From Escherichia coli phage AZ21: a DNA stretch of 64,000 bases. This document shows, one piece after another, positions 8,545 to 63,612 of the stretch. The position numbers were made by a program, and so were the translations under genes. The stretch lies in sequence record LC788708.1. One strand, written 5' to 3'. The notes below the pieces were generated by a model. It made no database searches, was not told the DNA's origin, and saw nothing but the letters and a program-made list of their open reading frames with translations. Positions within the stretch are counted from its first letter, which is position 1, and each line of letters begins with the position of its first letter.

Positions 8545-9246
8545 ATGAAAGTAAAACCATTTGGTATGCTAGATATTGAATCTCTAGGAACTCCAGGAGA
8601 TTGTGGTACTACCCATATCGCAATGCCTTCATTCGCTTTTGTGGCTATGCATGGAATTGATAAAGACCCTGATCTAGTATTTGTTACTTTAGATGTACAA
8701 GATCAACTTAATTCTGGTGCCAAAGTTACAGCATCTACTCTAGCATTCTGGATGGATCAGGCTAAACATAGCCCGTCTGCTATCCACATTATGGAAGCTA
8801 TGAATGAGCGTAATCCAAAACTGGTTGCCTTCCAAAATGGTAAACATCATTGCACTAATAAACTTGGCTCTAACCATGCTGCCTTCTCTATGGCTCAAAA
8901 TATTATGGAGTTGGCTCTAGGCGAAAATGCTTTGTATTATGGCAATGGCCCAGAGTTTGATATGACTATCTACTCTGCAAACACTTTCCATGCTGGAACC
9001 AATGAAGAAATAGTTCCGTGGAAATTCTGGAACTTGGGTAATGTTAGATCTCTTCGTAATCTCTGGATGCAAACTGGCTATAGTTATAAAGCTCTAGAAA
9101 CCGAAGGTATTAGCTGGGCAATAGCTAAAATGGAGAAGATGGACACCATTCGTTATGGGATCTATCCGGTTAAGCACGACCCAGCATTCGATGCCCTAGT
9201 TGAGAGCTATTGTGTTGCAGCTATGATCGAAAAAATGAAAATTTGA
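8545..9246 (+). CDS. putative DEDDh-type 3'-5' exonuclease
   Basis: Exo I-like LDIESLG near N-terminus and Exo III-like YPVKHDPAFDA near C-terminus. Confidence 0.5.
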   Translation: MKVKPFGMLDIESLGTPGDCGTTHIAMPSFAFVAMHGIDKDPDLVFVTLDVQDQLNSGAKVTASTLAFWMDQAKHSPSAIHIMEAMNERNPKLVAFQNGKHHCTNKLGSNHAAFSMAQNIMELALGENALYYGNGPEFDMTIYSANTFHAGTNEEIVPWKFWNLGNVRSLRNLWMQTGYSYKALETEGISWAIAKMEKMDTIRYGIYPVKHDPAFDALVESYCVAAMIEKMKI

Positions 9247-9247
9247 T

Positions 9248-9276
9248 TTGCTTCCGGCTCCAAAATTCTGTATAAT
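9248..9276 (+). promoter_or_regulatory. sigma70 promoter (T5 early type)
   Basis: TTGCTT-17-TATAAT then CATAAATTTGAG leader. Confidence 0.65.
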
Positions 9277-9316
9277 ATATTCATAAATTTGAGAAAACAA
9301 TAAAAGGAAAACAAAT

Positions 9317-9499
9317 ATGCCAGTATCTAAAAATGTTCGTAAAAATGGTAAGAAAGCTACTCGTAATCTGGGTATCCGTCGTATGGCTGAACGTCAATCA
9401 GGTATCCAGAAAATCTTTGATCTGCTAAATCGTGCTAATCCTAAAATTGATAACAGTAACGATACTGTTCTGCGCACCCTGCTGGCAATTGGTCTGTAA
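9317..9499 (+). CDS. hypothetical basic small protein
   Basis: 60 aa. Confidence 0.35.
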   Translation: MPVSKNVRKNGKKATRNLGIRRMAERQSGIQKIFDLLNRANPKIDNSNDTVLRTLLAIGL

Positions 9500-9552
9500 T
9501 AGACCAAATTTAAACAAATTCAAATCTCAAACTTCATATAAGGAAGCAAATA

Positions 9553-10191
9553 ATGACTACTCGTATCTCTAAAACTCGCGCTCTGGCAACTATCAAATCT
9601 CTGGAAGCTAAAATCCGTAAAGCTACTGAACAACAGCTTCTGATCGCTGTTGGTGAAGGTAAGGATAAAAACCAGGTTGTAGTTGGCGCTGCAATCGAAG
9701 TAGATGCCCTGTCTACTCGTATTAAAACTGATTTCCAATCTCTGCTGGATATGATGTCTCAGCGTGATCGTATTAAATCTGCTCTGATTAAGAGCAATGC
9801 AGAAACAATCGTTGAGATTGGTTCTCGTAAGATGACTGTTGCGGAAGCAATTGAAGCTAAGCGTTCTATGGAGCTTAAAGCTCAGCTGCTGGCTAACATG
9901 CGTAAGCAGTTCCATGCCGCTACGATTAAGTTTAATACGCAGAAAGCACAGTTTGATGCTAAATATGAGCGTTTGCAGGATAGCATGGCTACCCGCGATA
10001 AGAAAACTTCCGAAGATGAAGTTAAAATGCAGCTCAATCTGCTGGAACTCAAGAATACTCCATTCTTGATTGATCCGCTGGAACTGGAGAAGCTGATTAA
10101 GCAGCATGACGAGGAATACCAGGACTTTGCAACAAATGTTGACTTTGTTCTATCCGAGTCTAACGCCTCTACCTTCATTGAAGTAGAGTAA
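9553..10191 (+). CDS. hypothetical coiled-coil protein
   Basis: RBS AAGGAAG then ATG; 212 aa. Confidence 0.45.
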   Translation: MTTRISKTRALATIKSLEAKIRKATEQQLLIAVGEGKDKNQVVVGAAIEVDALSTRIKTDFQSLLDMMSQRDRIKSALIKSNAETIVEIGSRKMTVAEAIEAKRSMELKAQLLANMRKQFHAATIKFNTQKAQFDAKYERLQDSMATRDKKTSEDEVKMQLNLLELKNTPFLIDPLELEKLIKQHDEEYQDFATNVDFVLSESNASTFIEVE

Positions 10192-10574
10192 TAATTTAAA
10201 AGCTAGTAAATCGGTAGACGAAAGCCCAAGCATCTTACCTCGCAGCAGCGGTTGAAATACGAGGTTAAATAAGACCGCTGACCATACTATAAAGTATAAT
10301 CTATTGGAGATTATGTTTATTACACCAGCCTCTTAAGCTGACACGTAAGAACAAAGCGTCGTTGATATTACCGACACAACTTCAAAGATCAACATTTAAG
10401 TATGAAAGCTGAAAAGTTTAAAGAACTCAAACTTCTAAACTTCTAAAGCTAAAAGATGCAAAGTATTCGTTGATGATTCAAACCCTAGATCAAAGGTACA
10501 TGGCTCATAAGATATGGCCTGTGGCGCCTCTAGGCTGTTTATCGGTTTACTAGTTTCACAATTTAAAAATGTAT

Positions 10575-10603
10575 TTGCTAATTTACTAAGTTATCTGTAT
10601 AAT
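10575..10603 (+). promoter_or_regulatory. sigma70 promoter (T5 early type)
   Basis: TTGCTA-17-TATAAT then AAATTGATGAAACGAGG leader. Confidence 0.65.
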
Positions 10604-10633
10604 ATATTTTTAAATTGATGAAACGAGGCTATT

Positions 10634-10951
10634 ATGACTTTTCATATTTTGATTGATGATGTGCGTAATCTTCACGGAATGGACATTATCATTCGAACCC
10701 CAGAAGCCGCTGTAGAGTTTCTGAATAAAACTGATACCACAGGCCACTTCGTTTATATGGATAATGACTTGGCTGTAGATGGTATGGAAGGTTATCAAAT
10801 TCTTCGTTTACTCTTAGAATTTGGGCAGAGACCAAAGAAAGTGGTACTAGTAACCTCAAACCCAGTAGCTAAGCAAAATATGCGTAATGATTTGCTTGAC
10901 TTAGGGTATAAAGAAAATCCCAATCGTGTTGAATATGATTGGCAGGAGTAA
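10634..10951 (+). CDS. CheY-like receiver-domain protein (stand-alone)
   Basis: ILIDDV acidic pocket, YMDNDLAVDGMEG (Asp + MDG-like), VVLVTSN (conserved Thr/Ser) in receiver-domain order; 105 aa. Confidence 0.4.
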   Translation: MTFHILIDDVRNLHGMDIIIRTPEAAVEFLNKTDTTGHFVYMDNDLAVDGMEGYQILRLLLEFGQRPKKVVLVTSNPVAKQNMRNDLLDLGYKENPNRVEYDWQE

Positions 10952-12767: not shown

Positions 12768-12842
12768 CGGGGTGTAGTCTAAGGGAGAGGCAGGAGTCTT
12801 CTAAATTCCTTTATGCAGGTTCGAATCCTGTCACCTCGGCCA
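12768..12842 (+). tRNA. tRNA-Arg (anticodon UCU), CCA encoded
   Basis: Acceptor CGGGGTG/CACCTCG, anticodon stem GGAGT/ATTCC with loop CTTCTAA, T-arm GCAGG-TTCGAAT-CCTGT. Confidence 0.65.
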
Positions 12843-12876
12843 ATTTTATTAACTGTAACTAAAACAAAGGAAACAT

Positions 12877-13824
12877 ATGTTTAATACTAAAAATATGAAA
12901 GAATTGACTTCTGAGCAGAAAGTAATTCGTACTATTAAACGTTGGGGTATTGGTGCTGTAGTTGGTTTAGCAGGTTTAATCCTAGCTTTTAATTCGTATA
13001 CCATTGTTTCTGATGGTACGGTTAAAACCCAAACATTCCTGGGTAAAGTAGACCCTAATCCAGTATTACCTGGTTTCCATCTTGTAAACCCGTTTGCATC
13101 TTTCGATACTTTTAGTACGAAAGATATTTCTATGAAACTGGATAAACTTCAGGTTCCTAGCCAGGATAAGTTTAAGTCTACAGTTGACATTACCGTTATG
13201 TTGCAGTTTGATGGTGCTAAAGCTCCTATTAACCGTGTTAACGCAGGTACTCAGGATCAAGCTCTGAACAAGTACGTTGAAGAGAAGATGCTGTCTACGA
13301 TTCGTGAGTTTGGTAAGTCTGTACCAAAAGCACAAGATCTGTTCGACGCTAAGATTCAGGCTCAACTGCAAACCGCTATTCAGCAAGAAGTAGAAGAGTA
13401 TGCGCGTCCTTATGGCTACACCGTTAAGCAAGTATTCCTTCAGGATATTACTCTGCCACCGGTAATCATGGAACAGGTACAAAACACCAAAGTTCGTGAA
13501 GAACAAGTTAACGCTGCAAAAGCTGAACTAGCTCGTGTTGAACAAGAAGCACAGCAGAAAGTTAAGCAAGCTGAGGCTGATCGTTCTGCTCGTGAAAATA
13601 TGGCAGTAGCTAACGAACGTGACGCAGATGCTAAACTGTATGCGGCTAAGAAAGAAGCTGAAGCTAACACCGCTCTGCAGCGTACCATCACTCCAGAGAT
13701 GATTCGCTGGAAACAGCTGGAAGTTGATATGAAACGCGCTGAAAAATATCAGGGTGGCGTTCCTCAGACTGTTGTAGGTACTGGTTATGATGGCCAGATG
13801 ATTATGGATATGCGTAATAAGTAA
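12877..13824 (+). CDS. SPFH/band-7 (prohibitin/HflKC-like) membrane protein
   Basis: N-terminal TM helix, SPFH-like core, long Ala/Glu/Gln-rich coiled-coil tail. Confidence 0.55.
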   Translation: MFNTKNMKELTSEQKVIRTIKRWGIGAVVGLAGLILAFNSYTIVSDGTVKTQTFLGKVDPNPVLPGFHLVNPFASFDTFSTKDISMKLDKLQVPSQDKFKSTVDITVMLQFDGAKAPINRVNAGTQDQALNKYVEEKMLSTIREFGKSVPKAQDLFDAKIQAQLQTAIQQEVEEYARPYGYTVKQVFLQDITLPPVIMEQVQNTKVREEQVNAAKAELARVEQEAQQKVKQAEADRSARENMAVANERDADAKLYAAKKEAEANTALQRTITPEMIRWKQLEVDMKRAEKYQGGVPQTVVGTGYDGQMIMDMRNK

Positions 13825-13848
13825 TAGTTACACGTAATCTTCGAAACA

Positions 13849-13882
13849 AGCCCGCGTTTCCTCCGAGAGCGCGGGCTTTTCT
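13849..13882 (+). terminator. rho-independent terminator
   Basis: AGCCCGCG...CGCGGGCT hairpin followed by TTTTCTG. Confidence 0.7.
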
Positions 13883-14027
13883 GTATTTAAGGCAAAAGAA
13901 AAGCCCATAAGTTATTCAACTAAGGTCTTTAGTACTTAATTCTTTAGAATCATATACTATTATTGCAGCAACAACGTGCTACCACTAAATGCCCTACGAT
14001 TTTCCTCTAAAAAGTTAAAAAATTCGA

Positions 14028-14056
14028 TTGCTTGAATGCTAAATTCTCTGTATAAT
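14028..14056 (+). promoter_or_regulatory. sigma70 promoter (T5 early type)
   Basis: TTGCTT-17-TATAAT then TTATAAATTTGAGAGAGG leader. Confidence 0.65.
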
Positions 14057-14086
14057 ATATTTATAAATTTGAGAGAGGAATCAAAT

Positions 14087-14383
14087 ATGAAACGCATTGT
14101 ACTTGCATTGACTCTAGTATCTACTTCTGTATTTGCTGCTCCACAACAGGAACTTTGTCAAGTTCAAGTTTGTAATAAGCTAGAACGATTTACTTTGGAT
14201 ATTTGGTCACACATTAAAGATAATATGGGTGAGCAATGTTTTGATATTGTTCTGCCAAAAGAACAAGCTGTTCCTGGTGCTGTTCTCAGCTCAGAATCAC
14301 GTTGGTGGCAAGGTTCTTCTATCAATCCAACTAAGAAGTCAGTGACACGTATCAAACAAGTGTATCAGTGCAGTGTTCAGTAA
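14087..14383 (+). CDS. small secreted Cys-containing protein
   Basis: Signal peptide MKRIVLALTLVSTSVFA; track ORF trimmed to RBS-supported ATG. Confidence 0.45.
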   Translation: MKRIVLALTLVSTSVFAAPQQELCQVQVCNKLERFTLDIWSHIKDNMGEQCFDIVLPKEQAVPGAVLSSESRWWQGSSINPTKKSVTRIKQVYQCSVQ

Positions 14384-14391
14384 AATTTCAC

Positions 14392-14420
14392 TTGCTTAAT
14401 GCCGAAATTTTCTATATAAT
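14392..14420 (+). promoter_or_regulatory. sigma70 promoter (T5 early type)
   Basis: TTGCTT-17-TATAAT. Confidence 0.65.
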
Positions 14421-14451
14421 ATATTCTATAAATTATAGATAGGAGTCATAT

Positions 14452-14970
14452 ATGACTGTTGACGAGTTAAAACAACATCTTTTATCTAGGGGCTTTGATA
14501 GTGATAAGTATCACTGTTGGCTCTCTCCACATGGATGGTTAACAGTTCCACTGTATGATTTCTCTGGCATGTTACGTGGATATCAAACATATAACCCTAG
14601 TGCAGCTAAAGGTCATGGAAAATGTCCTTCTGAAGCTAAATATTTTACGCATTCTTCTACTCAATGTCTATGGGGTTTAGAAACTCTTACAGGTAATGAA
14701 GACCTAGTATTAGTTGCAGAATCTGTATTTAAAGCTGTGGCACTACACAACGCGGGATATCCCGCACTAGCAATGCTAGGATCTTCCCCTAGCAAAGCAC
14801 TGCTAAAGCAGCTAAAATTACAACCTTTTAAAGTAGTAGCCGTAGGCGATAATGATTCTGCTGGTGAGAAGTTTGCTAAAAAACTAAATGGGTTTACTTC
14901 CCTCATGGATTTAGATGAAATGAATACAGAAAACTTGAAAAATTTTCTTGCCATGAAGCTAAATTTCTAA
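14452..14970 (+). CDS. Toprim-domain protein (primase-like fold)
   Basis: Toprim-like conserved Glu (LVLVAESVF) and DxD (VAVGDNDSAG). Confidence 0.4.
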   Translation: MTVDELKQHLLSRGFDSDKYHCWLSPHGWLTVPLYDFSGMLRGYQTYNPSAAKGHGKCPSEAKYFTHSSTQCLWGLETLTGNEDLVLVAESVFKAVALHNAGYPALAMLGSSPSKALLKQLKLQPFKVVAVGDNDSAGEKFAKKLNGFTSLMDLDEMNTENLKNFLAMKLNF

Positions 14971-14976
14971 TATAAT
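14948..14976 (+). promoter_or_regulatory. sigma70 promoter inside the 3' end of the preceding CDS, ahead of tRNA pair
   Basis: TTGCCA-17-TATAAT then CATAAATTTGG; tRNA starts about 15 nt downstream. Confidence 0.55.
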
Positions 14977-14990
14977 ATATTCATAAATTT

Positions 14991-15084
14991 GGAAGATTAA
15001 CCCTAAAGGTAAGGGAGCTGTTTGCTAAACAGCCAGTAGCTGTGGAGACACGGTGTGCCAGTTCGAATCTGGCATCTTCCTCCA
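14991..15084 (+). tRNA. tRNA-Ser (anticodon GCU), long variable arm, CCA encoded
   Basis: Acceptor GGAAGAT/ATCTTCC, anticodon stem GCTGT/ACAGC with loop TTGCTAA, T-arm GCCAG-TTCGAAT-CTGGC. Confidence 0.7.
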
Positions 15085-15089
15085 AATTT

Positions 15090-15167
15090 GGTTCTCAAGC
15101 TCATTTGGTATGAGCCGTCGCCTCATAAGCGAAAGGTAGGCAGGTTCGAATCCTCCGGGAGCCACCA
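15090..15167 (+). tRNA. tRNA with CAU anticodon (Met or Ile2), CCA encoded
   Basis: Acceptor GGTTCTC/GGGAGCC with G-U pairs, anticodon loop CTCATAA, T-loop TTCGAAT. Confidence 0.65.
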
Positions 15168-15186
15168 AATTAAATAAGGACAACTA

Positions 15187-15375
15187 ATGGAATTATTCAT
15201 AGTTTCTATTAAATTTGCACAAGATAGAGAACATTCGGACGAGTTTAAACAAGGGTACAGACTAGTAAAGGCTACATCTGAACTACATGCTATGGACAAA
15301 GTAGTAGACTATATGTATAAAGTAGAAGACGTTTACTACGTCAATGCTTTAGAAGCCTCAAAAGTAATTAACTAG
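15187..15375 (+). CDS. hypothetical protein
   Basis: RBS AAGGA then ATG. Confidence 0.3.
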   Translation: MELFIVSIKFAQDREHSDEFKQGYRLVKATSELHAMDKVVDYMYKVEDVYYVNALEASKVIN

Positions 15376-15383
15376 GAGACTAT

Positions 15384-15569
15384 ATGTCCAAATTTCAAGA
15401 ACTCAAGCAAGAGCTAGAAGAGTGTGCCTGCCCAAAATGCTTCGGAGTAGGTGAGTGGAACGATGCTGAACCCGGTGATACACGGTATAATACATACGTT
15501 TGTACATATTGTAATGGTTCTGGTATTAATCCTGAATGTGGTATTTCTCTAGACATTGAGCGAGGTTAA
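15384..15569 (+). CDS. small zinc-finger-like protein
   Basis: Two CxxCxGxG-like motifs (CPKCFGVG, CTYCNGSG). Confidence 0.4.
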   Translation: MSKFQELKQELEECACPKCFGVGEWNDAEPGDTRYNTYVCTYCNGSGINPECGISLDIERG

Positions 15570-15909
15570 GATGGATATTTTTACTACTCCGGCAATAAAC
15601 CTTTTAGGTGTTGGCTTGTTCCAAGCTACGGTGTATCGTACTGATGATTCTACTGATGTGGTAACGTTCATCGTACCTGAGTTCTTCCTAGAAAAGTTCT
15701 TTGAAGAGTTTGAGCAGTTCCGTGAAGAACACAATGCTCATTCCGATATGGAAGATCTAGCAGCTATGTTCCCTGCGGTTTACGGCTATATCTTTGAAGG
15801 TAATGGCCTAGATCTTAATAAATCTGAACTCGTTGAACTTAACTGGGGCATCAATTTTGAAGTTGGCTCTCCATTCCCTCGATATTTCCAGGGTTTAGAG
15901 ATTCGCTAA
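15556..15909 (+). CDS. hypothetical acidic protein
   Basis: Start overlaps upstream stop. Confidence 0.4.
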   Translation: MSEVKMDIFTTPAINLLGVGLFQATVYRTDDSTDVVTFIVPEFFLEKFFEEFEQFREEHNAHSDMEDLAAMFPAVYGYIFEGNGLDLNKSELVELNWGINFEVGSPFPRYFQGLEIR

Positions 15910-15917
15910 GATTACAT

Positions 15918-15994
15918 GGGGGTGTAATCGAATTGGCATAGGTACTGGACTTAAAATTCAGGTTTTGTGGGTTCGAATCCCACCACCCCTACCA
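15918..15994 (+). tRNA. tRNA, anticodon apparently UAA (isotype uncertain), CCA encoded
   Basis: Acceptor GGGGGTG/CACCCCT, anticodon stem CTGGA/TTCAG with loop CTTAAAA, T-arm GTGGG-TTCGAAT-CCCAC; short variable loop is atypical for Leu. Confidence 0.5.
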
Positions 15995-16145
15995 AATTAA
16001 GGAAATAAAATGAAAGCTATTAAGAAAGCACTGCGTAAATTTATGTATTGTCGTTTTCATAGCATCAAGGCTTCAACTAATGGTACTACTTACGATCGCT
16101 ATGATCCTAAGTTTGGCTTACATTCTAAATAACTGGAGAAAACAA

Positions 16146-16352
16146 ATGGCTAATCCTGAAATTACGGCACAACGCTTTATGCTGAAAGGAATTATTGCTG
16201 AAGCAGGCATGACAGAAGAAGTTGCAGATTTTCAAAAGCAATTCCTCAATATTCTCACTCAAGCCAAAGAGCTAGGAGAGAAAGAACATGGCGCGGCTAT
16301 TATGGCAATCACATTGGTTGGGCTTGATCTGGCTGAAGAATCAGGAGTTTAA
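16146..16352 (+). CDS. hypothetical protein
   Basis: RBS CTGGAG then ATG; track ORF trimmed. Confidence 0.35.
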   Translation: MANPEITAQRFMLKGIIAEAGMTEEVADFQKQFLNILTQAKELGEKEHGAAIMAITLVGLDLAEESGV

Positions 16353-16382
16353 CTCCTCCAAGCAGAAATTTTAAAAATGTAC

Positions 16383-16412
16383 TTGCTTTTTGCTTAAGAT
16401 TTCTGCTATAAT
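16383..16412 (+). promoter_or_regulatory. sigma70 promoter (T5 early type)
   Basis: TTGCTT-18-TATAAT then AAGTTGATGAGAGG leader. Confidence 0.6.
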
Positions 16413-16441
16413 AGTTATATAAGTTGATGAGAGGAATCAGA

Positions 16442-16717
16442 ATGTTAAAACGTTTTGCAGCAACTGGTATTGAAAGCTCAGTATGTAAATCCTGGGGTGG
16501 TTGGGAAGGTGAGATCGAGTGGCTTCAGTTCTACAATGTAGAACTTCTTCCAGAGATCAAAGCTCAATGTATTGAGGCTGGTATGGCTCCTGATGCTACG
16601 GCTGATGTTGAAATCAGCATGAATAAGCTAGAGGGTCGAGTAGTCACTGTTACTGATGAAGGTGAAGAGGTATTCGAACTTCCATTCACTTTGAAAGTCA
16701 CTCCTTCATTTGATTAA
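16442..16717 (+). CDS. hypothetical protein
   Basis: RBS GAGAGGAATC then ATG. Confidence 0.4.
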   Translation: MLKRFAATGIESSVCKSWGGWEGEIEWLQFYNVELLPEIKAQCIEAGMAPDATADVEISMNKLEGRVVTVTDEGEEVFELPFTLKVTPSFD

Positions 16718-16753
16718 CTGATACAGCACTGAGCAAGTTCTTTAAAATTTGAC

Positions 16754-16782
16754 TTGCTCAGTGCCTTAAAACTTGATATAAT
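16754..16782 (+). promoter_or_regulatory. sigma70 promoter ahead of tRNA-Tyr
   Basis: TTGCTC-17-TATAAT. Confidence 0.6.
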
Positions 16783-16847
16783 ATTTATCTAATTTGGAAA
16801 CATATTTAAAAGTGTTTAAATGAGAATTTTTGAATACTTCTAAATAT

Positions 16848-16935
16848 GGGCGTTTATTCCGTAAGTGGTAGCGGAGGGGATTGTAAATCCCTGGTCATTG
16901 CGACTCGAGTGGTTCGACTCCATTAACGCCCACCA
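16848..16935 (+). tRNA. tRNA-Tyr (anticodon GUA), long variable arm, CCA encoded
   Basis: Acceptor GGGCGTT/AACGCCC, anticodon stem GGGGA/TCCCT with loop TTGTAAA, T-loop TTCGACT. Confidence 0.7.
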
Positions 16936-16952
16936 AATTAAAGGTAAAGGAT

Positions 16953-17144
16953 ATGTATATTGATCGGATAATTCAAGAAGCTGCAAATAGGGGTATTATA
17001 CAGTTGGGTTCACCCGCTGATATAAATAAAGATCTAATATTAGAAAGCCTCACATTTGGTACAGCTAACTTTGGTCGCGATAGTAATCGTCGATATAGCT
17101 TGAAGTTATCTGCACTATCTTTTATCAAGTATAACAAATTATAG
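16953..17144 (+). CDS. hypothetical protein
   Basis: 63 aa between two tRNAs; weak support. Confidence 0.25.
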   Translation: MYIDRIIQEAANRGIIQLGSPADINKDLILESLTFGTANFGRDSNRRYSLKLSALSFIKYNKL

Positions 17145-17218
17145 TTAGTTGGCAGAGTGGTTATGCACCTCCTTCATACGGAGCGACTACAGTGGTTCAA
17201 CTCCACTACTAACTACCA
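17143..17218 (+). tRNA. tRNA with CAU anticodon (Met or Ile2), CCA encoded
   Basis: Acceptor AGTTAGT/ACTAACT, anticodon loop TTCATAC, T-arm AGTGG-TTCAACT-CCACT. Confidence 0.6.
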
Positions 17219-31653: not shown

Positions 31654-32094
31654 ATGAGAGAAAAAGTAAATGAATTACTAATCGAGGAAGCTAACAACTT
31701 TCCAATAAATAGGTTTGTCAAATCTGATGGATCTATTAATAGAACTAAGATTAAGCAGCTACATCCCGACTTTCAACAAGAAGCACTAAACCTTATATTT
31801 ATCAAGAAAGCTGTTGCAGTTCATGGGGCTTTCTTTGGGTATGAGCGTGTAAATTACAAAACAATGCAACAGCAAGTCGAGATCTACTGTCCAGATCATG
31901 AAGGGTATTATTGGCAAACTGCTAGATCTCATTTAGAAGGGCATGGTTGTCGACTGTGTGCACACAAGGTTGTGCAGCGTGTCACGGATTATGGAACTTA
32001 TACCGTACCAGCATGTTATCATAAATTTGTAGTTGACGATAATCATATAGTTTGGTATAATAAGTTTTCAAAGTTAAGAATGGAGATAAAATAA
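31654..32094 (+). CDS. hypothetical Cys/His-rich protein
   Basis: CPDHEG...HGCRLCAH motif. Confidence 0.35.
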   Translation: MREKVNELLIEEANNFPINRFVKSDGSINRTKIKQLHPDFQQEALNLIFIKKAVAVHGAFFGYERVNYKTMQQQVEIYCPDHEGYYWQTARSHLEGHGCRLCAHKVVQRVTDYGTYTVPACYHKFVVDDNHIVWYNKFSKLRMEIK

Positions 32095-32279: not shown

Positions 32280-32884
32280 TGACTTTTAATACACAACAAT
32301 CTATTCAAGTAGTGCCAGATCATGAACTGAACACATGGGATTATAGCTTTAAAGATTTAACTGCTACTATACAATTTAAATCTATGAAGCTAACATTTGC
32401 ACACACTGATCTTAGAGCCTGTAAAGATCTTGAGGATAAGCTCGAAGATGCTCGTAAGATTTTTGGCAAGGCTCGCATCCCGGCTGATAATCTAATTAAC
32501 GCATTAATCGATGTAGGATACAAACTCGTGAAGACTGAGGTGAACCGCCCTAGTACTCCAGTGACTGTTAGAGATCCGTGGCAGCCAGGGACAATCTCAA
32601 TGCTAAATAAATCATCGGATATACACAATGTTCCATGCGGTGGTGTGGTAAGTAGTACGCAGTCATACAAGTTTGGTGAAGATTACGGCCCTTCTGTGCA
32701 GTTGAAACATACTCAAGAAGCTTTTGAATCTGATATGCGAAGCGTAGCACCTGTGGATGCTGGAGTTTCTAGGAGTTCTGTTTGTACTATTCATTTTAAT
32801 AATCCTAGTAAACATGGAAGTTTAGAGGATGCTATCCTTGAAGCGTTGGGAGCTGCTATTAATGAAGATAAAAGAGGTAGTTAA
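32279..32884 (+). CDS. hypothetical protein
   Basis: 201 aa. Confidence 0.4.
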   Translation: MTFNTQQSIQVVPDHELNTWDYSFKDLTATIQFKSMKLTFAHTDLRACKDLEDKLEDARKIFGKARIPADNLINALIDVGYKLVKTEVNRPSTPVTVRDPWQPGTISMLNKSSDIHNVPCGGVVSSTQSYKFGEDYGPSVQLKHTQEAFESDMRSVAPVDAGVSRSSVCTIHFNNPSKHGSLEDAILEALGAAINEDKRGS

Positions 32885-33774
32885 TGGGATTTTATAGTAA
32901 TAGAAAACCAAAAGGTGTAACTGGTAAATTCGCAGTTGAAGAAAGACCTTTTCCACCGGTCGATGTAGAGAAACTACGTGAACTTCTAGAAATGCTAGAA
33001 GGTTGCCATGAACGTTGTTATTCTGAACTCTCTTTAAATGAGAAACGTGTTGTTGAGATGTTCTGTATTCGTTCAGCTAGAACAGCTAAAGGTACTTCTC
33101 CAAAAGATGAAGTAAAAGAGTACAGAGTTCTAGTGATGCATGCTTGGGCACAACGTTTTGCAGTTCATTCGCTTCAGGAATGGTTTAATCTTCCAGCCTA
33201 TAAAGATTTTCATGTTTACGAAGATGAGGTTATGAATTATAATGAGTTGTATGGTTTGTCCTTCAAAAAGACAGGCTCACCGATGCATGATGCACTCAAT
33301 TCATTCCCTGATCATTACCTTCCAGTTCGTGAATATAGAGATCGTGAAGGAAATAAACCCTGCTTCACTATTTGGAATAAGTCTAAGACGATATCTGATC
33401 TAGATAATTATTGGTTTCGCACAAAAGAAGGATTCCTAGGAACAGAACCTTTACCTAAGGATCTCAAACCTATCCTTCCGCCTGCGAAACCTAAACATGA
33501 AGTAACGATTGCTATTAATAGAATAATTCTAGGAGCAGATGATCTTACTAAACAAATCGCCGCAGTTATCGCAGTTCTGTTTGACGGTACAAATTCTTCT
33601 GCACGTTATGAGAAGCTAACGGATAACAAATTGCAGATACCTAACGAGTTGTATGAGAGTTCGTGCAAGATCTATGATAACTTTAGTAAAGTAGATTACC
33701 CCGTGAGATCCATTAAAGAACTCATGGAGTATGCGGAGATGGGGATGAAAGGAAATCTCATGTTCGATGAATAA
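32884..33774 (+). CDS. hypothetical protein
   Basis: 296 aa; last early-type gene before repeat region. Confidence 0.45.
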   Translation: MGFYSNRKPKGVTGKFAVEERPFPPVDVEKLRELLEMLEGCHERCYSELSLNEKRVVEMFCIRSARTAKGTSPKDEVKEYRVLVMHAWAQRFAVHSLQEWFNLPAYKDFHVYEDEVMNYNELYGLSFKKTGSPMHDALNSFPDHYLPVREYRDREGNKPCFTIWNKSKTISDLDNYWFRTKEGFLGTEPLPKDLKPILPPAKPKHEVTIAINRIILGADDLTKQIAAVIAVLFDGTNSSARYEKLTDNKLQIPNELYESSCKIYDNFSKVDYPVRSIKELMEYAEMGMKGNLMFDE

Positions 33775-33781
33775 ACTCTAC

Positions 33782-33810
33782 TTGACGTTATGATTTCTGC
33801 ATGTTATAAT
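33782..33810 (+). promoter_or_regulatory. sigma70 promoter pointing into the gene-free repeat region
   Basis: TTGACG-17-TATAAT; no convincing ORF downstream. Confidence 0.5.
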
Positions 33811-34138
33811 AACTCTATGAAATAACATAGAATAAAGAGATCCACCCGGATACGGATGGTGGATGGGAAACTTCTATTTCCCCCGTAGCTTGTCGGAGGG
33901 CTAGGGAAATCTTAAGAAGTTTTGTACCATCTCACGCAATTCGTATCCCAGGGGTGGAGCATCTCTTCCAATCTTTGGGGATCTTATACTTAAATTAAAG
34001 GTAAAACTTTTGGTCACATAATTTACATTCAAGATGATACACTGGTTGCCGCCATTCTTCCTAGGATGGCACAACACTTTCTTCTAGACTCCTAAGTTTC
34101 TAGGAATACTAACTCTAGAGTTTACACTAAACTTTGAA

Positions 34139-34876
34139 TCGGATTCGCACATGCTCTAGGGCAGTTTTTCATCTACTATAAATATCCTAGGCCGGTTTTC
34201 CTATACAGGGCGGTTATGGGGAGGGCGGTTATTTCTAGACAATAAAATTTACTCTTGTCAGTCCAGAAATTACTGTCGGATTTGCACATTGTGTTTCTAG
34301 AAATTTATGGTCGGATTTGCACAATTGCCTAAGTTTTTAGGAACATATAATCTCCTGAAAATGGCAGCATTATTTCGGGCCGAAGGCCCATGATTGCCTG
34401 AGTTTTTTTAGAGACACAGAAATTTTCACTTGTCAAGCTATTTTGCCCCATTTTGCTAATAAAATTTTACTTTATCTCCCCTAATCTCAAATTAACCCAA
34501 ATCTTCTCAACTCTTCTCCAAAATCCCCGCAAATCAGGTGCTCCGCACCAAACATGCGCCCCTCCCGTAGTTCCCCCAAGTTTCTCTCGATCTCTCAACT
34601 TCTCCCCAAACTCATACAATCACACACCCTCCAATCGAAGTCACAAAAATCTTGTCGGATTCGCACAAATAAACCCATGTCGGATTTGCACATATTCTAG
34701 TTAATTCCACAGGATTGATGCGCAGCATCGGATTGCTGGAGTTTTTGGGAGAATTCATTGTCGGATTCGCACACTATAAAAATTTTTCGGGTCGGATTTG
34801 CACACTACCAAAAATTGTCGGATTCGCACATACACGCCCACGCGTAATCCATGGGGGCAAATGTCGGATTTGCACA
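34139..34876 (+). repeat. array of nine direct copies of GTCGGATT(T/C)GCACA
   Basis: Copies at about 34139, 34275, 34310, 34654, 34679, 34760, 34791, 34817, 34863, irregular spacing. Confidence 0.85.
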
Positions 34877-34881
34877 AAAGC

Positions 34882-34899
34882 GCAGGGCAATTGCCCTGC
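34882..34899. repeat. perfect 18 bp palindrome GCAGGGCAATTGCCCTGC
   Basis: Read directly. Confidence 0.85.
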
Positions 34900-34904
34900 T
34901 TGCC

Positions 34905-35098
34905 TGAATGCGAATGATAATGAGAATCATTTGCATTTAAAAAGCGGAATGAGAATGATAATAATTCGCATTTAAGAATGGAAGTGAGAATTATTCAGGA
35001 AGTGAAACGATTCTCATTTAAAAAGTGAAACGATTCTCATTTAGAAAGTGAAACGCGAATGATAATGATTCGTATTTAAGAATGGAAGTGAGAAACAC
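34905..35098. repeat. GAATGATAATGA / AGTGAAACGATTCTCATTTA / CGCATTTAAGAATGGAAGTGAGAA repeat block
   Basis: AGTGAAACGATTCTCATTTA twice in tandem (35001, 35025); C(G/A)(C/T)ATTTAAGAATGGAAGTGAGAA twice (34968, 35071). Confidence 0.8.
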
Positions 35099-35109
35099 TA
35101 TTATTTAAG

Positions 35110-35118
35110 TTATCCACA
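35110..35118 (+). promoter_or_regulatory. DnaA-box consensus TTATCCACA
   Basis: Exact 9-mer; TTATCAACA variants at about 35122, 35171, 35183. Confidence 0.6.
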
Positions 35119-35199
35119 GACTTATCAACAGCACGATTTGACTTGACAGAATCCTAGCCATTTTGAGGCGTTATCAACAGACTTATCAACAGCTTATCC

Positions 35200-35219
35200 T
35201 ACTGTATAAATATACAGTA
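35200..35219. promoter_or_regulatory. LexA-box-like palindrome TACTGTATAAATATACAGTA
   Basis: CTGT-N8-ACAG with AT-rich core, close to the E. coli SOS-box consensus. Confidence 0.55.
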
Positions 35220-35413
35220 TTCCTATGCAGTGAATAATTCTAATATACAGCTAAAACGCTCTCAAACGCATTCTAACGCGTTTAATTTTGGTGGGGATAC
35301 TAAAACAAGGGCAAAATTGGAGGAGGCTTGAAAATTAGTTAGCTCGCTAATGATCACACACGGCGACACGTAACACCCTAACCATTAGCAGGCTAACCAT
35401 CGCGGGCGTGGTC

Positions 35414-35434
35414 AAATGAGAATGATTCTCATTT
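35414..35434. repeat. 21 bp palindrome AAATGAGAATGATTCTCATTT
   Basis: Same GAGAATGAT core as the upstream repeat block. Confidence 0.8.
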
Positions 35435-35585
35435 GTGGATTGGGGGCGCTTCCTGATAGTTGCGCCCCGTGATTATTATAGTAGGGGGCAACCGTTACGC
35501 TTTGCCCACTCCCGCCACTCATCTTGGTGCCTAGACTTGCGACGGCGTACTAAAAACCGCTTGTACCAGTGATTAAACCATCGTT

Positions 35586-35789
35586 TCATAAATCCTCCTC
35601 CGGTAGTCGATGCGTGATCTTTTCCTCCTCCCCATAGGAATCCACCAAATACTGATAATAACCATCGTGATCATAAATCACTTTATCATATTCCCCACGC
35701 TCGACCGCTTGCCGATTTTCCAACGTATCAGGCACAAAGAAAGTATCAACGGTAACAGTAGTTTTAGTTACAACAATTTTATCACTCAT
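35586..35789 (-). CDS. hypothetical pre-early protein
   Basis: 67 aa acidic; last gene of minus-strand block. Confidence 0.4.
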   Translation of the reverse strand: MSDKIVVTKTTVTVDTFFVPDTLENRQAVERGEYDKVIYDHDGYYQYLVDSYGEEEKITHRLPEEDL

Positions 35790-35915
35790 AATGCCATCGC
35801 CCCTAGAATGAGAATGATTATCAATATCATTGTGAAGCCATTACCAAATCGTAAACGCTGGGAATGTTTCCCAGCGGTATTATTAGACTTATGGCTTTGT
35901 GTTTTTCGCCACCAG

Positions 35916-36116
35916 CTATTCACGGTAGACGCTCCATCCGTCTAGCTTCCATTCTTCCCCCTTGCGAATATTGAAAAACCAATCATTAAAATTGTAACCA
36001 TCTTCTGACATGATCACGCCGTTTTCTTTCATGTACAAAAATTCATCACTAGTAAAATATTGATTACTAACTTTAAAACCTTGTTTCATTTTTTCTAGTG
36101 CTTCATCTTTAGTCAT
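35916..36116 (-). CDS. hypothetical pre-early protein
   Basis: 66 aa; start overlaps upstream stop. Confidence 0.4.
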   Translation of the reverse strand: MTKDEALEKMKQGFKVSNQYFTSDEFLYMKENGVIMSEDGYNFNDWFFNIRKGEEWKLDGWSVYRE

Positions 36117-40270: not shown

Positions 40271-40391
40271 AGTTCGATAAGAGCGATAACTTGATAAAAT
40301 TTGACGGTCGGTGCTTACCATAATGCGCCCCGCCCCCTAACGGGATATAGCGGCCTACGTGGAGTTCTTTAAATTGATTATAGCGGCGAGA

Positions 40392-40445
40392 GGATTGTTA
40401 CTTATTACCTGCTAGTATTTTCTAGTAGGTAATAAGTAACAATCC
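40392..40445 (+). other. long hairpin, 24 bp stem (23/24) with 6 nt loop
   Basis: GGATTGTTACTTATTACCTGCTAG-TATTTT-CTAGTAGGTAATAAGTAACAATCC, just upstream of the next RBS. Confidence 0.8.
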
Positions 40446-40468
40446 ATCAAATAACTGGAGTTTATATT

Positions 40469-40720
40469 ATGCAAAACGTTATTACCGCGCCTAAAATTGG
40501 TCAATCCGTCTTTATTCCTTTCGTTACTAAAACGGATGAATTAACCGGAAAGGCCGAACGTATTAAAGGTGCGGCGCTTATGCCGTTCGATACAATCGAC
40601 GCGGTATATGCTGAAAATGAACGCAGTAACAACGGCAAGCCCGTTTTTAGCGTTCGCGTTAAATCCGGCGATGTTGTAAAGGTTGTTCAACGCAACGAAA
40701 AATGGGAAGCTGTGTTGTAA
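40469..40720 (+). CDS. hypothetical pre-early protein
   Basis: RBS CTGGAG then ATG; 83 aa. Confidence 0.45.
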   Translation: MQNVITAPKIGQSVFIPFVTKTDELTGKAERIKGAALMPFDTIDAVYAENERSNNGKPVFSVRVKSGDVVKVVQRNEKWEAVL

Positions 40721-56124: not shown

Positions 56125-56610
56125 ATGGATTATAGAACAAGTATTGCACAAGCTCTGGTTGACCGTATATCTAAACAGTTGGATGGTTCTCAACCTGACG
56201 AATATTTTAATAACCTATATGGAAACGTTTCTCGTCAAACTTATAAATTTGAGGAAATACGAGAGTTTCCTTATGTGGCAGTTCATATCGGAACTGAAAC
56301 TGGGCAGTATCTTCCTTCGGGCCAACAGTGGATGTTTTTAGAACTTCCAATCCTGGTGTACGATAAAGAGAAAACAGACATTCAAGAGCAACTTGAAAAA
56401 CTCGTAGCGGATATAAAAACCGTTATTGACACAGGTGGAAATTTAGAATATACTGTTAGTAAACCTAATGGATCGACCTTCCCATGTGAGGCAACTGATA
56501 TGATCATTACATCAGTTAATACAGATGAGGGTCTACTGGCCCCATATGGTTTAGCAGAAATAAATGTAACAGTGAGGTATCAGCCTCCACGTAGGTCACT
56601 TCGCAGATAA
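56125..56610 (+). CDS. putative tail terminator/completion protein
   Basis: 161 aa immediately upstream of tail tube gene. Confidence 0.4.
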   Translation: MDYRTSIAQALVDRISKQLDGSQPDEYFNNLYGNVSRQTYKFEEIREFPYVAVHIGTETGQYLPSGQQWMFLELPILVYDKEKTDIQEQLEKLVADIKTVIDTGGNLEYTVSKPNGSTFPCEATDMIITSVNTDEGLLAPYGLAEINVTVRYQPPRRSLRR

Positions 56611-56636: not shown

Positions 56637-58031
56637 ATGTCTTTACAACTATTACGTAATACTCGAATCTTCGTGTCTACGGTTAAGACTGGTCATAATA
56701 AGACCAACACGCAAGAGATTCTAGTTCAGGATGATATTTCTTGGGGTCAGGACAGTAACTCAACAGATATTACTGTTAATGAAGCTGGTCCGCGTCCAAC
56801 TCGTGGTTCTAAACGTTTTAACGACTCTTTAAACGCGGCTGAGTGGAGTTTCTCTACTTACATCCTGCCCTATATCAATAAAGATGATCAGAAGCAAATC
56901 GTTCCTGACTATATGTTATGGCATGCACTTTCTAGTGGTAAAGCTATTAACTTAGAAGGTAATACAGGGGCACACAATAACGAGGCTAACTTCATGGTTA
57001 ACTTCAAAGATAACTCCTATCATGAGTTAGCAATGTTACATATTTATATTCTGACTGATAAAGCATGGAGTTATATCGATTCCTGTCAGATTAATCAGGC
57101 AGAAGTTAACGTTGATATCGAAGATATTGGCCGTGTAACTTGGTCCGGTAATGGTAATCAGCTTATTCCTCTGGATGAGCAACCATTTGACCCAGATGAG
57201 TTAGGTATTGATGATGAAACTTATATGACTATCCAGGGTTCTTATATTAAGAACAAACTAACGATCTTGAAGATCAAGGATATGGATACCAATAAGTCTT
57301 ATGACATACCTATTACTGGTGGTACTTTCACCATTAATAATAACATCACGTATCTAACCCCGAATATTATGTCCCGTGTAAATATTCCGATCGGTTCATT
57401 TACTGGCGCATTTGAACTAACTGGTTCATTAACTGCTTATCTGAATGATAAATCTCTTGGTTCTATGGAGCTGTATAAAGATCTTATCAAAACTCTGAAG
57501 GTAGTTAACCGCTTCGAAATTGCTCTAGTACTTGGTGGTGAATACGATGAAGAACGTCCTGCGGCTATTTTGGTAGCTAAACAAGCACACGTTAATATTC
57601 CTACTATTGAAACTGATGATGTACTTGGTACTTCAGTAGAGTTTAAAGCTATTCCATCTGATCTGGATGCTGGTGATGAAGGTTACTTAGGCTTCTCTAG
57701 TAAATATACCAAAACAACTATTAATAACTTGATTGTTAATGGTGATGGTGCTACTAATGCTGTAACCGCAATTACTGTTAAATCTGCTGGTGATGTTACT
57801 ACAGTAAATAACTCGGCTACTCTTCAAATGAGTGTTGAAATTACTCCTTCTTCCGCAAAGAATAAAGAAGTTACTTGGGCTATCACTGCTGGTGATGCAG
57901 CTACTATCAATGCAGCAGGACTATTAACAGCCCATGCTAGTAAAACAGGTGCGGTAACTGTTGAAGCTACAGCTAAGGATGGTTCTGGAGTTAAAGGTAC
58001 TAAACAGATTACTGTAACAGCAGGTGGTTAA
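56637..58031 (+). CDS. tail tube protein with C-terminal Ig-like (BIG2-type) domain
   Basis: 464 aa; C-terminal Ig-like domain; upstream of chaperone and tape-measure genes. Confidence 0.75.
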   Translation: MSLQLLRNTRIFVSTVKTGHNKTNTQEILVQDDISWGQDSNSTDITVNEAGPRPTRGSKRFNDSLNAAEWSFSTYILPYINKDDQKQIVPDYMLWHALSSGKAINLEGNTGAHNNEANFMVNFKDNSYHELAMLHIYILTDKAWSYIDSCQINQAEVNVDIEDIGRVTWSGNGNQLIPLDEQPFDPDELGIDDETYMTIQGSYIKNKLTILKIKDMDTNKSYDIPITGGTFTINNNITYLTPNIMSRVNIPIGSFTGAFELTGSLTAYLNDKSLGSMELYKDLIKTLKVVNRFEIALVLGGEYDEERPAAILVAKQAHVNIPTIETDDVLGTSVEFKAIPSDLDAGDEGYLGFSSKYTKTTINNLIVNGDGATNAVTAITVKSAGDVTTVNNSATLQMSVEITPSSAKNKEVTWAITAGDAATINAAGLLTAHASKTGAVTVEATAKDGSGVKGTKQITVTAGG

Positions 58032-58035
58032 TTAA

Positions 58036-58935
58036 ATGTACTACTCTCTAATGAGAGAGTCAAAAGTTATAGTTGAGTATGATGGTAGGGCATTTCATTT
58101 TGATGCCCTATCAAACTATGATATACAGACTTCCTACGAGGAATTCAAGACTCTTCGTAGGACTGTTCATCGTAGAACTAACTATGCAGACTCTATTATA
58201 AATGCTCAAACTCCCTCTTCTATCTCTCTAGCCGTAAATTTCAGTAATACTCTTACGGAGGCTAACTTCTTTGAATGGTTAGGTTTTGATAGAAAAGGTA
58301 ATACTTTCTTACTCCCACTATATAGTAGTAATATTGAACCTATTATGTTCAATATCTATATAGTAAACAAAGATAGTAACTGTGTATATTTTGAAAACTG
58401 TTATGTATCTACGGTAGATTTTTCTTTAGATAAGAACATACCAATTCTTAATGTTGGTATTGAGTCTGGGAAATTCTCAGAAGTATCTACCTATAGAGAA
58501 GCAGCTTCTATTATACAGGGTGAAGTAATGTCTTACAGCCCAGTAATAGCTTCTACTAATGGCAGCATCTTACCAGGTCTTATTTCTGCCTCTTTATCTT
58601 TCCAACAGCAGTGTTCCTGGAGAGAGGATAAGAGTGTTTTTGATATAAATAAAATTTATAATAATAAAAGAGCCTATGTAACTGAAATGAATGCTTCGGC
58701 AACCATTTCTCTATACTACTTAAAACGTTTTGCAGGAGATATGGTTTATAATATAGAACCGGAGATAGATATACCTTTAACAATAAGAAATAATAATATT
58801 TCTATAGATTTTCCTTCAGCACGTATTACAAAACGCCTAGATTTCTCAGATGTGTATAGAGTTGAGTGGGATATTATACCTACTGCTTCTTCAGACCCAG
58901 TGAGAATAGATTTCTTTGGAGAAATTAAAAAATGA
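58036..58935 (+). CDS. hypothetical tail-associated protein
   Basis: 299 aa between tail tube and chaperone genes. Confidence 0.4.
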   Translation: MYYSLMRESKVIVEYDGRAFHFDALSNYDIQTSYEEFKTLRRTVHRRTNYADSIINAQTPSSISLAVNFSNTLTEANFFEWLGFDRKGNTFLLPLYSSNIEPIMFNIYIVNKDSNCVYFENCYVSTVDFSLDKNIPILNVGIESGKFSEVSTYREAASIIQGEVMSYSPVIASTNGSILPGLISASLSFQQQCSWREDKSVFDINKIYNNKRAYVTEMNASATISLYYLKRFAGDMVYNIEPEIDIPLTIRNNNISIDFPSARITKRLDFSDVYRVEWDIIPTASSDPVRIDFFGEIKK

Positions 58936-63583: not shown

Positions 63584-63612
63584 TTGATAAAATTTTCTAA
63601 TACTATTATAAT
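63584..63612 (+). promoter_or_regulatory. sigma70-like promoter in late region
   Basis: TTGATA-17-TATAAT upstream of RBS AGAGGAG. Confidence 0.5.

Follow-up and report, generated by a model that had tools for sequence, protein, structure and literature searches.

A probable small structured RNA gene beside the left terminal repeat of T5-like phages

The DNA considered here is a stretch of 64,000 nucleotides (nt) from Escherichia coli phage AZ21 (LC788708.1), called the window throughout. Its subject is a promoter at 33782-33810 and the structured DNA that follows it, which we read, with a probability of about 0.7, as a genuine, independent, unannotated and single-copy gene for a small non-coding RNA of T5-like phages. 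The window runs in reverse complement to the standard T5 map. Upstream of the locus, none of the three proteins encoded on the + strand has a Pfam domain; all three fall in PHROG families without an assigned function, and for one there are weak matches to endonuclease families as well. The T5.018 homologue occupies the open reading frame (ORF) 32884..33774, and 7 nt separate its stop codon from the -35 hexamer at 33782. Downstream of the RNA locus come 1.6 kilobases (kb) without a credible gene.

The end of the T5 left terminal repeat (T5 10219) aligns to position 34411 of the window, the annotated T5 injection-stop signal (T5 9140-10149) maps to about 34481-35600 and the major T5 nick at 9748/9749 maps to 34879/34880. 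The promoter and the RNA locus thus lie in unique DNA, some 0.6-0.7 kb outside the left terminal repeat, with the promoter pointing toward the repeat. The locus is part of the DNA that is transferred only in the second step, and the RNA gene would therefore be the first transcription unit to enter the cell once transfer resumes. In T5 itself (NC_005859) the counterpart of the RNA runs from about 10844 to 10642 on the complementary strand, in an interval (T5 10219-10936) that carries no annotated feature in either T5 GenBank record. We considered whether the gene might simply belong to the injection-stop signal or to Repeat Region 3 (T5 9194-10409), with its DR, IR and palindrome repeats and DnaA boxes, and rejected this, the gene mapping to T5 10642-10879, to the right of that region, and the iterons and DnaA boxes beginning only at 34139 of the window. 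The analysis of the untranslated Repeat Region 3 by Davison (10.1101/866236) ends at T5 10409 and mentions neither the promoter nor a transcript. Over positions 33700-35500 the E. coli phage AZ23 is 100% identical to the window, and hundreds of T5-like phages are 80-93% identical to it. The features of the locus are as follows, P1 to P3 being hairpins of the predicted RNA fold.

33782..33787, + strand: -35 hexamer TTGACG
33802..33810, + strand: extended -10 element TGtTATAAT (TG at 33802-33803, TATAAT at 33805-33810)
33817..33995, + strand: predicted non-coding RNA of about 165-180 nt, its start placed at A33817, 7 nt after the -10 element, and its 3' end in the U-rich tail
33817..33830, + strand: P1, a vestigial 5' hairpin, AUG..CAU, of 3 base pairs (bp) only
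33835..33966, + strand: P2, a long rod-like hairpin with its apex near 33888-33893
33966..33980, + strand: P3, a G-rich 3' hairpin, UUCCAA-UCU-UUGGGG, of 6 bp, homologous to P3 of the other sequence types described below
33981..34027, + strand: U/A-rich tail and AT-rich spacer, a U-rich tail following P3 in every type
34028..34420, no strand assigned: conserved block, non-coding, that lies between the RNA gene and the terminal repeat's end and starts at TTCAAGATGATACAC

The first-pass annotation of this DNA had described the promoter as TTGACG and TATAAT separated by 17 nt. It was found at exactly those coordinates and has, in addition, an extended -10 TG, so that 11 of the 12 consensus positions and the TG are matched. 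Sites that fit TTGACA-N17-TATAAT with at most one mismatch number six in the 64-kb window, against 0.97 expected from shuffled sequences, and all six are on the + strand. Every T5-like lineage that was compared, among phages of E. coli, Salmonella, Yersinia and Klebsiella, has kept the promoter. The -35 hexamer is TTGACA or TTGACG in most types, with the weaker forms TTGCAT in type E and TTGAAA in type M. The TG of the -10 element is retained in all types, while the hexamer itself varies to TATCAT in T5, TACAAT in phiR2-01 and TATTAT in PWKp9S; in phage H8 the match is a perfect 12 of 12 plus the TG. At least eight different spacer sequences separate the conserved hexamers and TG. Its hexamer match and its conservation over a drifting spacer mark the site as a predicted sigma-70 extended -10 promoter.

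Identity with a T5 promoter already described was considered and ruled out. P_H22, P_D/E20 and P11 lie in the repeat. P_J5 and P_G25 were excluded because their sites are elsewhere: by their sequences we take them to be the near-consensus promoters at 56426-56454 and 63584-63612. Both are reported to be late (PMC7472727), and neither that paper nor a 2026 T5 preprint names the promoter at 33782-33810. A second TTGACG-17-TATAAT with the TG stands at 32033-32061, inside the 3' end of ORF 31654..32094. It probably acts as a promoter within the operon and serves its last three genes, the homologues of T5.020 to T5.018.

The RNA that would be made from the promoter at 33782-33810 has a minimum free energy (MFE) of -66.4 kcal/mol, and its fold has a z-score of -4.7 against 200 dinucleotide shuffles. 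The base of the P2 rod is formed by AAGAGAUCCACC (33835-33846) pairing with GGUGGAGCAUCUCU(U) (33953-33966), and the MFE rod, with its outer weak pairs included (33829-33974), contains 54 pairs, four of them G·U. That segment folds with an energy of -64.0 on the + strand against -57.4 on the - strand. P3 lies outside the MFE fold of the window's own type. When folding energy was corrected for GC content, the 160-nt windows that start at 33801 and 33821 on the + strand ranked third to fourth among 6384 taken from both strands. Several hairpins had been proposed for this region from the letters alone. The two inverted repeats given as examples, CCACC..GGTGG (33842-33862) and GGGAAA..TTTCCC (33865-33882), are both present, but as suboptimal local pairings inside one rod of about 130 nt: when the two local hairpins are forced the energy is -39.7 kcal/mol rather than the -66.4 of the rod, and 33865-33870 pairs instead with 33920-33928 with a probability of at least 0.92.

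Homologous loci were gathered from IMG/VR contigs and from GenBank phages, and the order of parts proved to be the same in every phage: promoter, start region, 5' hairpin, rod, 3' hairpin, U/A-rich tail, AT-rich spacer and conserved block. The conserved start region after the promoter divides the phages into two classes, with AACTCTATGA in the first and AATCTCATAGATTA in the second. Within this single architecture the rods fall into at least 13 sequence types that cannot be aligned with one another. Types A-H come from E. coli and Salmonella phages, type J from the Yersinia phage phiR2-01 and types I, K, L and M from Klebsiella Sugarlandvirus phages; the window is of type A and T5 of type B. 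Across types the rod is 95-150 nt long and has 35-55 bp, and the whole element is about 165-220 nt. Promoter and fold are kept in about 490 related phage genomes, where the element is single-copy and its site is almost never annotated. By sequence, 316 records match the 5' part of types C-I, 141 the T5 type and about 36 the window's type, and 538 have the injection-stop region. A search with 15-mer anchors through metagenome and viral collections returned mostly chance matches.

The difference in sequence between types is plain at the rod base. The window, for example, has the base pairing AGAGAUCCACC/GGUGGAGCAUCUCU, T5 has UAGAGUUGCC/GGCAAAGCUCUA, chee24 has GCUCUAGGC/GCCUAGAGC, types E-H have GGGGCG/CGCCCC and Sealy has GCUAGGCA/UGCCUAGC. 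Types E-H have a common rod base and four different tips, each of them a hairpin. Motifs that extend across lineages are found in or near the base, namely a GAUUAU/AUAAUC helix in class 2 and, in class 1, a CCACC/GGUGG base together with CGGAG near the apex. The CGGAG occurs in the class-1 types A (at about 33880-33905 in the window), B (T5), J (locus L259) and L (locus L266), and T5 shares with the Klebsiella phage PWKp9S a longer apical stretch, CUUGU(U)AGCG.AG...UACGGAGCG..AGACAAG. A conserved binding motif may be present here.

The flanking hairpins vary as well. P1 has 6-9 bp in types other than the window's. In most types the 3' arm of P3 is a GGGG(G) run of four or five G residues, while the 5' arm differs between types and the pairing is largely G·U. 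In four Klebsiella loci (L258, L264, L265 and L267) the 3' arm of P1 can pair alternatively with a segment just after the rod, as AUGUAGC/GCUACAU in types I and K and as AUGAAGC/GCUUCGU in type M, with a compensatory change of U-A to A-U. The alternative pairing points to an extended rod, or to a switch, in competition with the 5' hairpin of those phages. A general helix closing the 5' and 3' ends was rejected, the AUAGAU/AUCUAU pairing holding in Klebsiella type I only. Also rejected was the idea of the window's rod type as a cassette more conserved than its flanks, the end of the upstream gene being equally conserved (93-99% versus 96-100%).

The fold appears to be what selection has preserved. 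Nine representatives of types A-H have MFE z-scores of -3.1 to -7.4, and types I-M have the same predicted fold. The first-pass annotation had pointed to covariance among relatives as a check on the downstream hairpins, and compensatory changes are indeed found. In the alignment of types E-H both sides have changed at 14 pairs, and 92.7% of cells are paired, compared with 38-45% when the partners are slid along the sequence; none of 500 shuffles reached that figure. In the T5-type alignment three pairs have changed on both sides and three more have switched between G·U and Watson-Crick pairing (GC/GU, UG/UA); one cell is broken and 99.8% are paired, against about 40% with the partners slid. 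P1 covaries in types other than that of the window (AU to CG, CG to UA and AU to UA), and in type M, where GGGGG has become GGAGA, U·G pairs of P3 are replaced by U-A. Pairing is specific to the transcribed strand: the 561 predicted pairs include 44 G·U, and A·C single mismatches number 0. The transcribed strand is the more stable in whole-RNA folds of 13 of the 14 representatives, and the + strand in rod-only folds of 10 of 11. Compensatory change and strand-specific G·U pairing therefore fit an RNA that is under selection and is transcribed in the promoter's direction. The pattern argues against a DNA cruciform, against an RNA from the opposite strand and against pure DNA template switching as the origin of the complementarity; template switching may nevertheless contribute to the appearance of new rod tips.

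A purely DNA-level role for the palindrome is hence highly improbable. In such a scheme the inverted repeat would act as a cruciform or as a single-strand hairpin, serving as a nuclease, packaging or injection signal, or would be a transposon-like palindrome, and the promoter would be unrelated to it. A long imperfect inverted repeat does adjoin a region rich in DNA signals, and the - strand also folds strongly (z-scores of -2.3 to -5.7), but neither the excess of G·U over A·C, nor the greater stability of the transcribed strand, nor a P3 that is paired largely by G·U would be expected of DNA. The element is, moreover, single-copy and always in the same place behind the same promoter, and neither the rest of the window nor E. 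coli has a further copy.

The element shows no coding potential. The claim that no credible ORF lies downstream of the promoter held up: no + strand ORF of at least 40 amino acids starts before 34453, and the longest + strand ORFs inside the element in 11 sequence types, of 23-49 amino acids, are unrelated in sequence and position, so that no ORF is conserved. The only overlapping ORFs, 33901..34077 (58 amino acids, with a GTG start) and 34329..34451, are on the - strand; the first of them is annotated in one relative and was rejected as a gene, since it cannot be conserved across rod types. Rfam searches with expectation values (E) of up to 1, covering positions 33000-36000 of the window and seven loci of types B, D, E, F, I and J, gave only sub-threshold chance matches, to a trypanosomatid small nucleolar RNA model, to STnc320 over terminators and to PrrF. 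ARAGORN found no transfer RNA (tRNA) or transfer-messenger RNA (tmRNA) near 33800; six tRNA genes are at 12768-17218 on the + strand (Arg-tct, Ser-gct, two Met-cat, Leu-taa and Tyr-gta), in keeping with the tRNA region of T5. No second copy of the element was found in the window by a covariance model derived from types E-H. Searches of the T5 literature found no description of the RNA.

Several features delimit the unit. In T5, Sealy and phiR2-01 a terminator-like hairpin stands between the upstream gene and the promoter. At the other end, the 3' end of type E passes a terminator scan, with a 14-bp stem followed by TTTTTCTTT, while in types D, F, H and J a G·U-rich hairpin of 8 bp precedes a tail that is U-rich but interrupted. 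P3 and the U-rich tail of the window (33966-33995) come before the first copy, at 34139, of a repeated sequence or iteron that marks the DNA beyond. We conclude from this arrangement that the main product would be a discrete RNA, about 165-220 nt long; in the window's type some transcripts may read through.

The window differs from T5, Sealy and phiR2-01 in having no terminator between the stop of the T5.018 homologue and the -35 hexamer, and for this reason transcripts of the upstream operon must enter the rod. This gives some support to a view of the hairpin as a transcriptional insulator or 3' end module, whose task would be to stabilise or end the early operon upstream and to guard the repeat boundary from read-through, the promoter being incidental. 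We regard it as very unlikely. A near-consensus promoter that is conserved everywhere, and reaches 12 of 12 positions plus TG in H8, is not what an incidental promoter would look like, in other lineages gene and promoter are already parted by a hairpin of their own, and a rod of 35-55 bp with conserved motifs far exceeds the needs of a terminator.

A number of observations weigh against an independent RNA gene shared by all these phages. The discriminator of the promoter is AACTCT or AATCTC, unlike the ATATT reported for the known T5 early promoters (PMC7472727). The covariance model from types E-H detects types C and D and misses A, B, I and J even with its filters off, so that the unity of the family rests on synteny, promoter and architecture and not on detectable homology. 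Klebsiella type I (Sealy) folds slightly better on the opposite strand, both as whole RNA and as rod only. DNA template switching can renew long palindromes and would thereby mimic compensatory change. The window's own type is among the weaker examples: its P1 is down to 3 bp and its 3' end, a 6-bp P3 with a weak tail, fails the terminator scan, as does type D, which makes P3 and its tail a weak terminator in the window's type and read-through possible there. Finally, the start, the end and the stability of the RNA are all read from the sequence.

The weak terminator has a bearing on where transcription leads. The first-pass annotation had offered two readings, a non-coding RNA or transcription into the repeat array that is itself regulatory. 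The first is favoured by the conserved promoter, by a fold found in at least 13 types, by compensatory changes, by strand-specific pairing and by the lack of a conserved ORF. The second is not favoured, because the element is self-contained, with P3 and the U-rich tail before the first iteron, and mostly ends before the array; the weakness of the terminator in the window's type leaves some room for it. A fuller form of the second reading, in which the structured part is a leader and the transcripts run on through the iterons and the injection-stop region, possibly as antisense into the pre-early genes (35586 onward, - strand), so that transcription itself or the antisense RNA is the regulator, seems to us to have only a slight chance of being right. 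No + strand terminator was called at 33960-34000 in the window, and the orientation does converge with the pre-early operon. Simple read-through would, however, leave selection on a rod fold with G·U pairs unexplained, further + strand terminator-like sites lie downstream, for example at 34723, and P3 of type E is a clear terminator. According to classical work on T5, A2 mutants transfer no second-step DNA but do show pre-early shut-off, and this too counts against a regulator of that kind.

The DNA between the RNA gene and the injection-stop signal has a history of its own. The AT-rich spacer (33981-34027) exists in three variants that recombine independently of rod type, as seen at loci L251, L256, L023 and L018: the variant TTATATAAAAACTAATACTGTTGAATAG is found with rods of types A and B, and the variant AATATTTAAAGGCAATATCTGTG with a rod of type B. 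Because the spacer variants combine freely with rod types, recombination breakpoints can be placed at GGGGGATCTTATA and TTCAAGATGATACAC. The conserved block that follows (34028..34420) is 72-96% identical among type-A relatives and about 75-89% identical in other T5-like loci; it is probably a DNA-level signal, and is taken here as the context of the RNA gene. Nine copies of the iteron TCGGATT[CT]GCACA, all in the same orientation and often preceded by TG or GG, are spread over 34139-34877, the first (34139-34152) being outside the terminal repeat at the edge of the RNA locus. They match the nine DRD repeats of Davison (10.1101/866236). The rod apex at 33888-33896 reads CUUGUCGGA, a 9-mer that also opens one iteron copy (34651-34659), UGUCGGA opening most copies; the 9-mer is absent from the T5-type rod, and its occurrence in both places is probably due to chance (E of 32). 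Farther on, direct and inverted repeats of the form AATGAGAATGATAAT...CATTTAA lie between 34894 and 35094, and GTTATC[CA]ACAGACTTATCAACAGC occurs at 35109-35132 and 35170-35193, each copy being a pair of DnaA-type boxes 3 bp apart; these repeats and boxes make up the core of the injection-stop region.

This layout raises the question of a cis role on the DNA at the repeat boundary. The promoter and a G-run-terminated RNA would form an R-loop or a primer, or would activate the adjacent spacer, block, iterons and DnaA boxes, and might in this way start replication, double the terminal repeat in concatemers or help to process the ends for packaging. The order of parts resembles that of RNA-primed origins (promoter, structured RNA, a run of four or five G residues kept in most types, an AT-rich spacer of about 45-55 bp, a conserved block, nine iterons and DnaA boxes in pairs), the promoter is directed at the terminal repeat from a site some 0.6 kb outside, and an oriC-like layout of DnaA boxes has been noted by Davison (10.1101/866236). 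Simple priming does not need a conserved, covarying rod, though, and P3 with its tail is terminator-like in several types; the same author cites a mapping of T5 origins to near the centre of the genome (10.1101/866236). On balance a cis role of this kind is unlikely.

We favour instead the following course of events for the independent RNA gene, which is put forward as a model. Host sigma-70 RNA polymerase would start at about 33817 from the near-consensus extended -10 promoter and make an RNA of about 165-180 nt in the window and of up to about 220 nt in other lineages. The RNA would fold into a short 5' hairpin, an imperfect rod of 35-55 bp and a G-rich 3' hairpin with a U-rich tail, and the tail would end most transcripts before the region of iterons and DnaA boxes of the injection-stop signal. 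Selection probably acts on the fold of the RNA from the transcribed strand, leaving the rod tip free to change while the rod base keeps its lineage-wide motifs. The RNA is probably stable, because the rod and the 3' hairpin would protect it against RNases. Our guess, a tentative one, is that it accumulates and acts in trans, the conserved rod base binding a protein for which the RNA is a decoy or sponge.

The choice of a protein as partner comes partly from a want of RNA targets. No complementarity longer than 12 nt to the element occurs elsewhere in the window (best E of 0.5), and no match to it was found in 5,426 E. coli genomes; both results argue against a mechanism based on long antisense pairing. 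Taken together, the conserved motifs of the rod base, the variable tip and the lack of antisense targets point to a trans-acting RNA that binds protein. A stable RNA of this sort is our leading guess at function, and a tentative one. More specifically, the RNA might be a viral decoy in the manner of adenovirus VA RNA, made as the first product of second-step DNA, with a rod base that neutralises a structure-sensing host factor such as a defence sensor or a nuclease; by analogy this is conceivable but doubtful. If it were true, the rod tips, of at least 13 types, would record an arms race, and recombination would have spread them among phages of E. coli, Salmonella, Yersinia and Klebsiella. In a bolder version the RNA may prime DNA synthesis into the terminal repeat.

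Comparison with known systems places the element near several of them and inside none. The pRNA of the phi29 family (RF00044) is encoded by phages and is about 120-174 nt long; it is transcribed by host polymerase from a strong early promoter near the genome end, and its secondary structure is conserved among relatives whose sequences are almost unalignable. The T5-like RNA is similar in its strong promoter near a genome end and in keeping structure without sequence. It differs in having no Rfam match and in being predicted as an unbranched rod, with no three-way junction or inter-molecular loop pair evident, and we know of no requirement for an RNA in T5 packaging. 6S RNA (RF00013), a rod of about 180 nt that sequesters the sigma-70 holoenzyme, is likewise rod-shaped and conserved in structure while poorly conserved in sequence. 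Here too there is no Rfam match at E of up to 1, the predicted rods have no conserved large central bubble, and the 5' and 3' ends form no closing stem, separate hairpins flanking the rod instead.

The abundant, mostly double-stranded VA RNA of adenovirus and EBER of Epstein-Barr virus, of about 160-170 nt, bind host proteins and offer an analogy of action rather than of membership; they are eukaryotic-viral, made by RNA polymerase III, and share no homology with the element. Transcripts that prime or activate origins, such as ColE1 RNA II, those of the promoter-dependent origins of T7 and T4 and mitochondrial LSP-CSBII, resemble it in layout, with promoter, structured RNA, G-run and AT-rich DNA beside replication-type repeats, whereas the T5-like element has a terminator-like P3 and a rod much larger than priming needs. 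The msr-msd non-coding RNA of retrons is similar in length (about 170-200 nt) and is dominated by a long hairpin that is hypervariable between systems; the T5-like locus has no adjacent reverse transcriptase, and no flanking a1/a2 repeats were identified. Membership of the 6S, pRNA, tRNA/tmRNA and retron families was tested and rejected in each case.

The element is a candidate for a new RNA family among the small structured RNAs encoded by phages, and an unusual one in its evolutionary pattern and in its position in a classical model phage. The approximately 1.7 kb between the T5 pre-early genes and T5.018 has so far been treated as untranslated DNA signals, and an RNA gene there would be a feature missing from about 490 deposited genomes. 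It would place an RNA product at the boundary of first-step and second-step DNA, and it would be a clear case of structure kept without sequence, with at least 13 discrete types built on shared base motifs. An RNA in this position could bear on questions of second-step transfer, repeat processing and host takeover.

Some other sites came to light during the work. Three deposits of 1.7-3.4 kb labelled 'Listeria phage LM ...' (OR849063, OR847759 and OR848837) match the T5-like non-coding region at 77-97% identity and are likely to be mislabelled or contaminated. At 40386-40445 the window has a near-perfect palindrome of 24 bp, GGATTGTTACTTATTACCTGCTAG / CTAGTAGGTAATAAGTAACAATCC, with one G·T pair; it stands in a divergent pre-early control region, between a promoter-like site TTGACA..TAAGAT (at about 40237) and an ATG at 40470, and the windows at 40301-40621 are among the most structured of the whole 64 kb. 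The most strongly structured 160-nt stretch of all is at 58021-58220 on the + strand (z-score of -4.5), spanning the stop codon of ORF 56637..58031 as well as the opening 180 nt or so of ORF 58036..58935, where it may be a structure for translational coupling or regulation.

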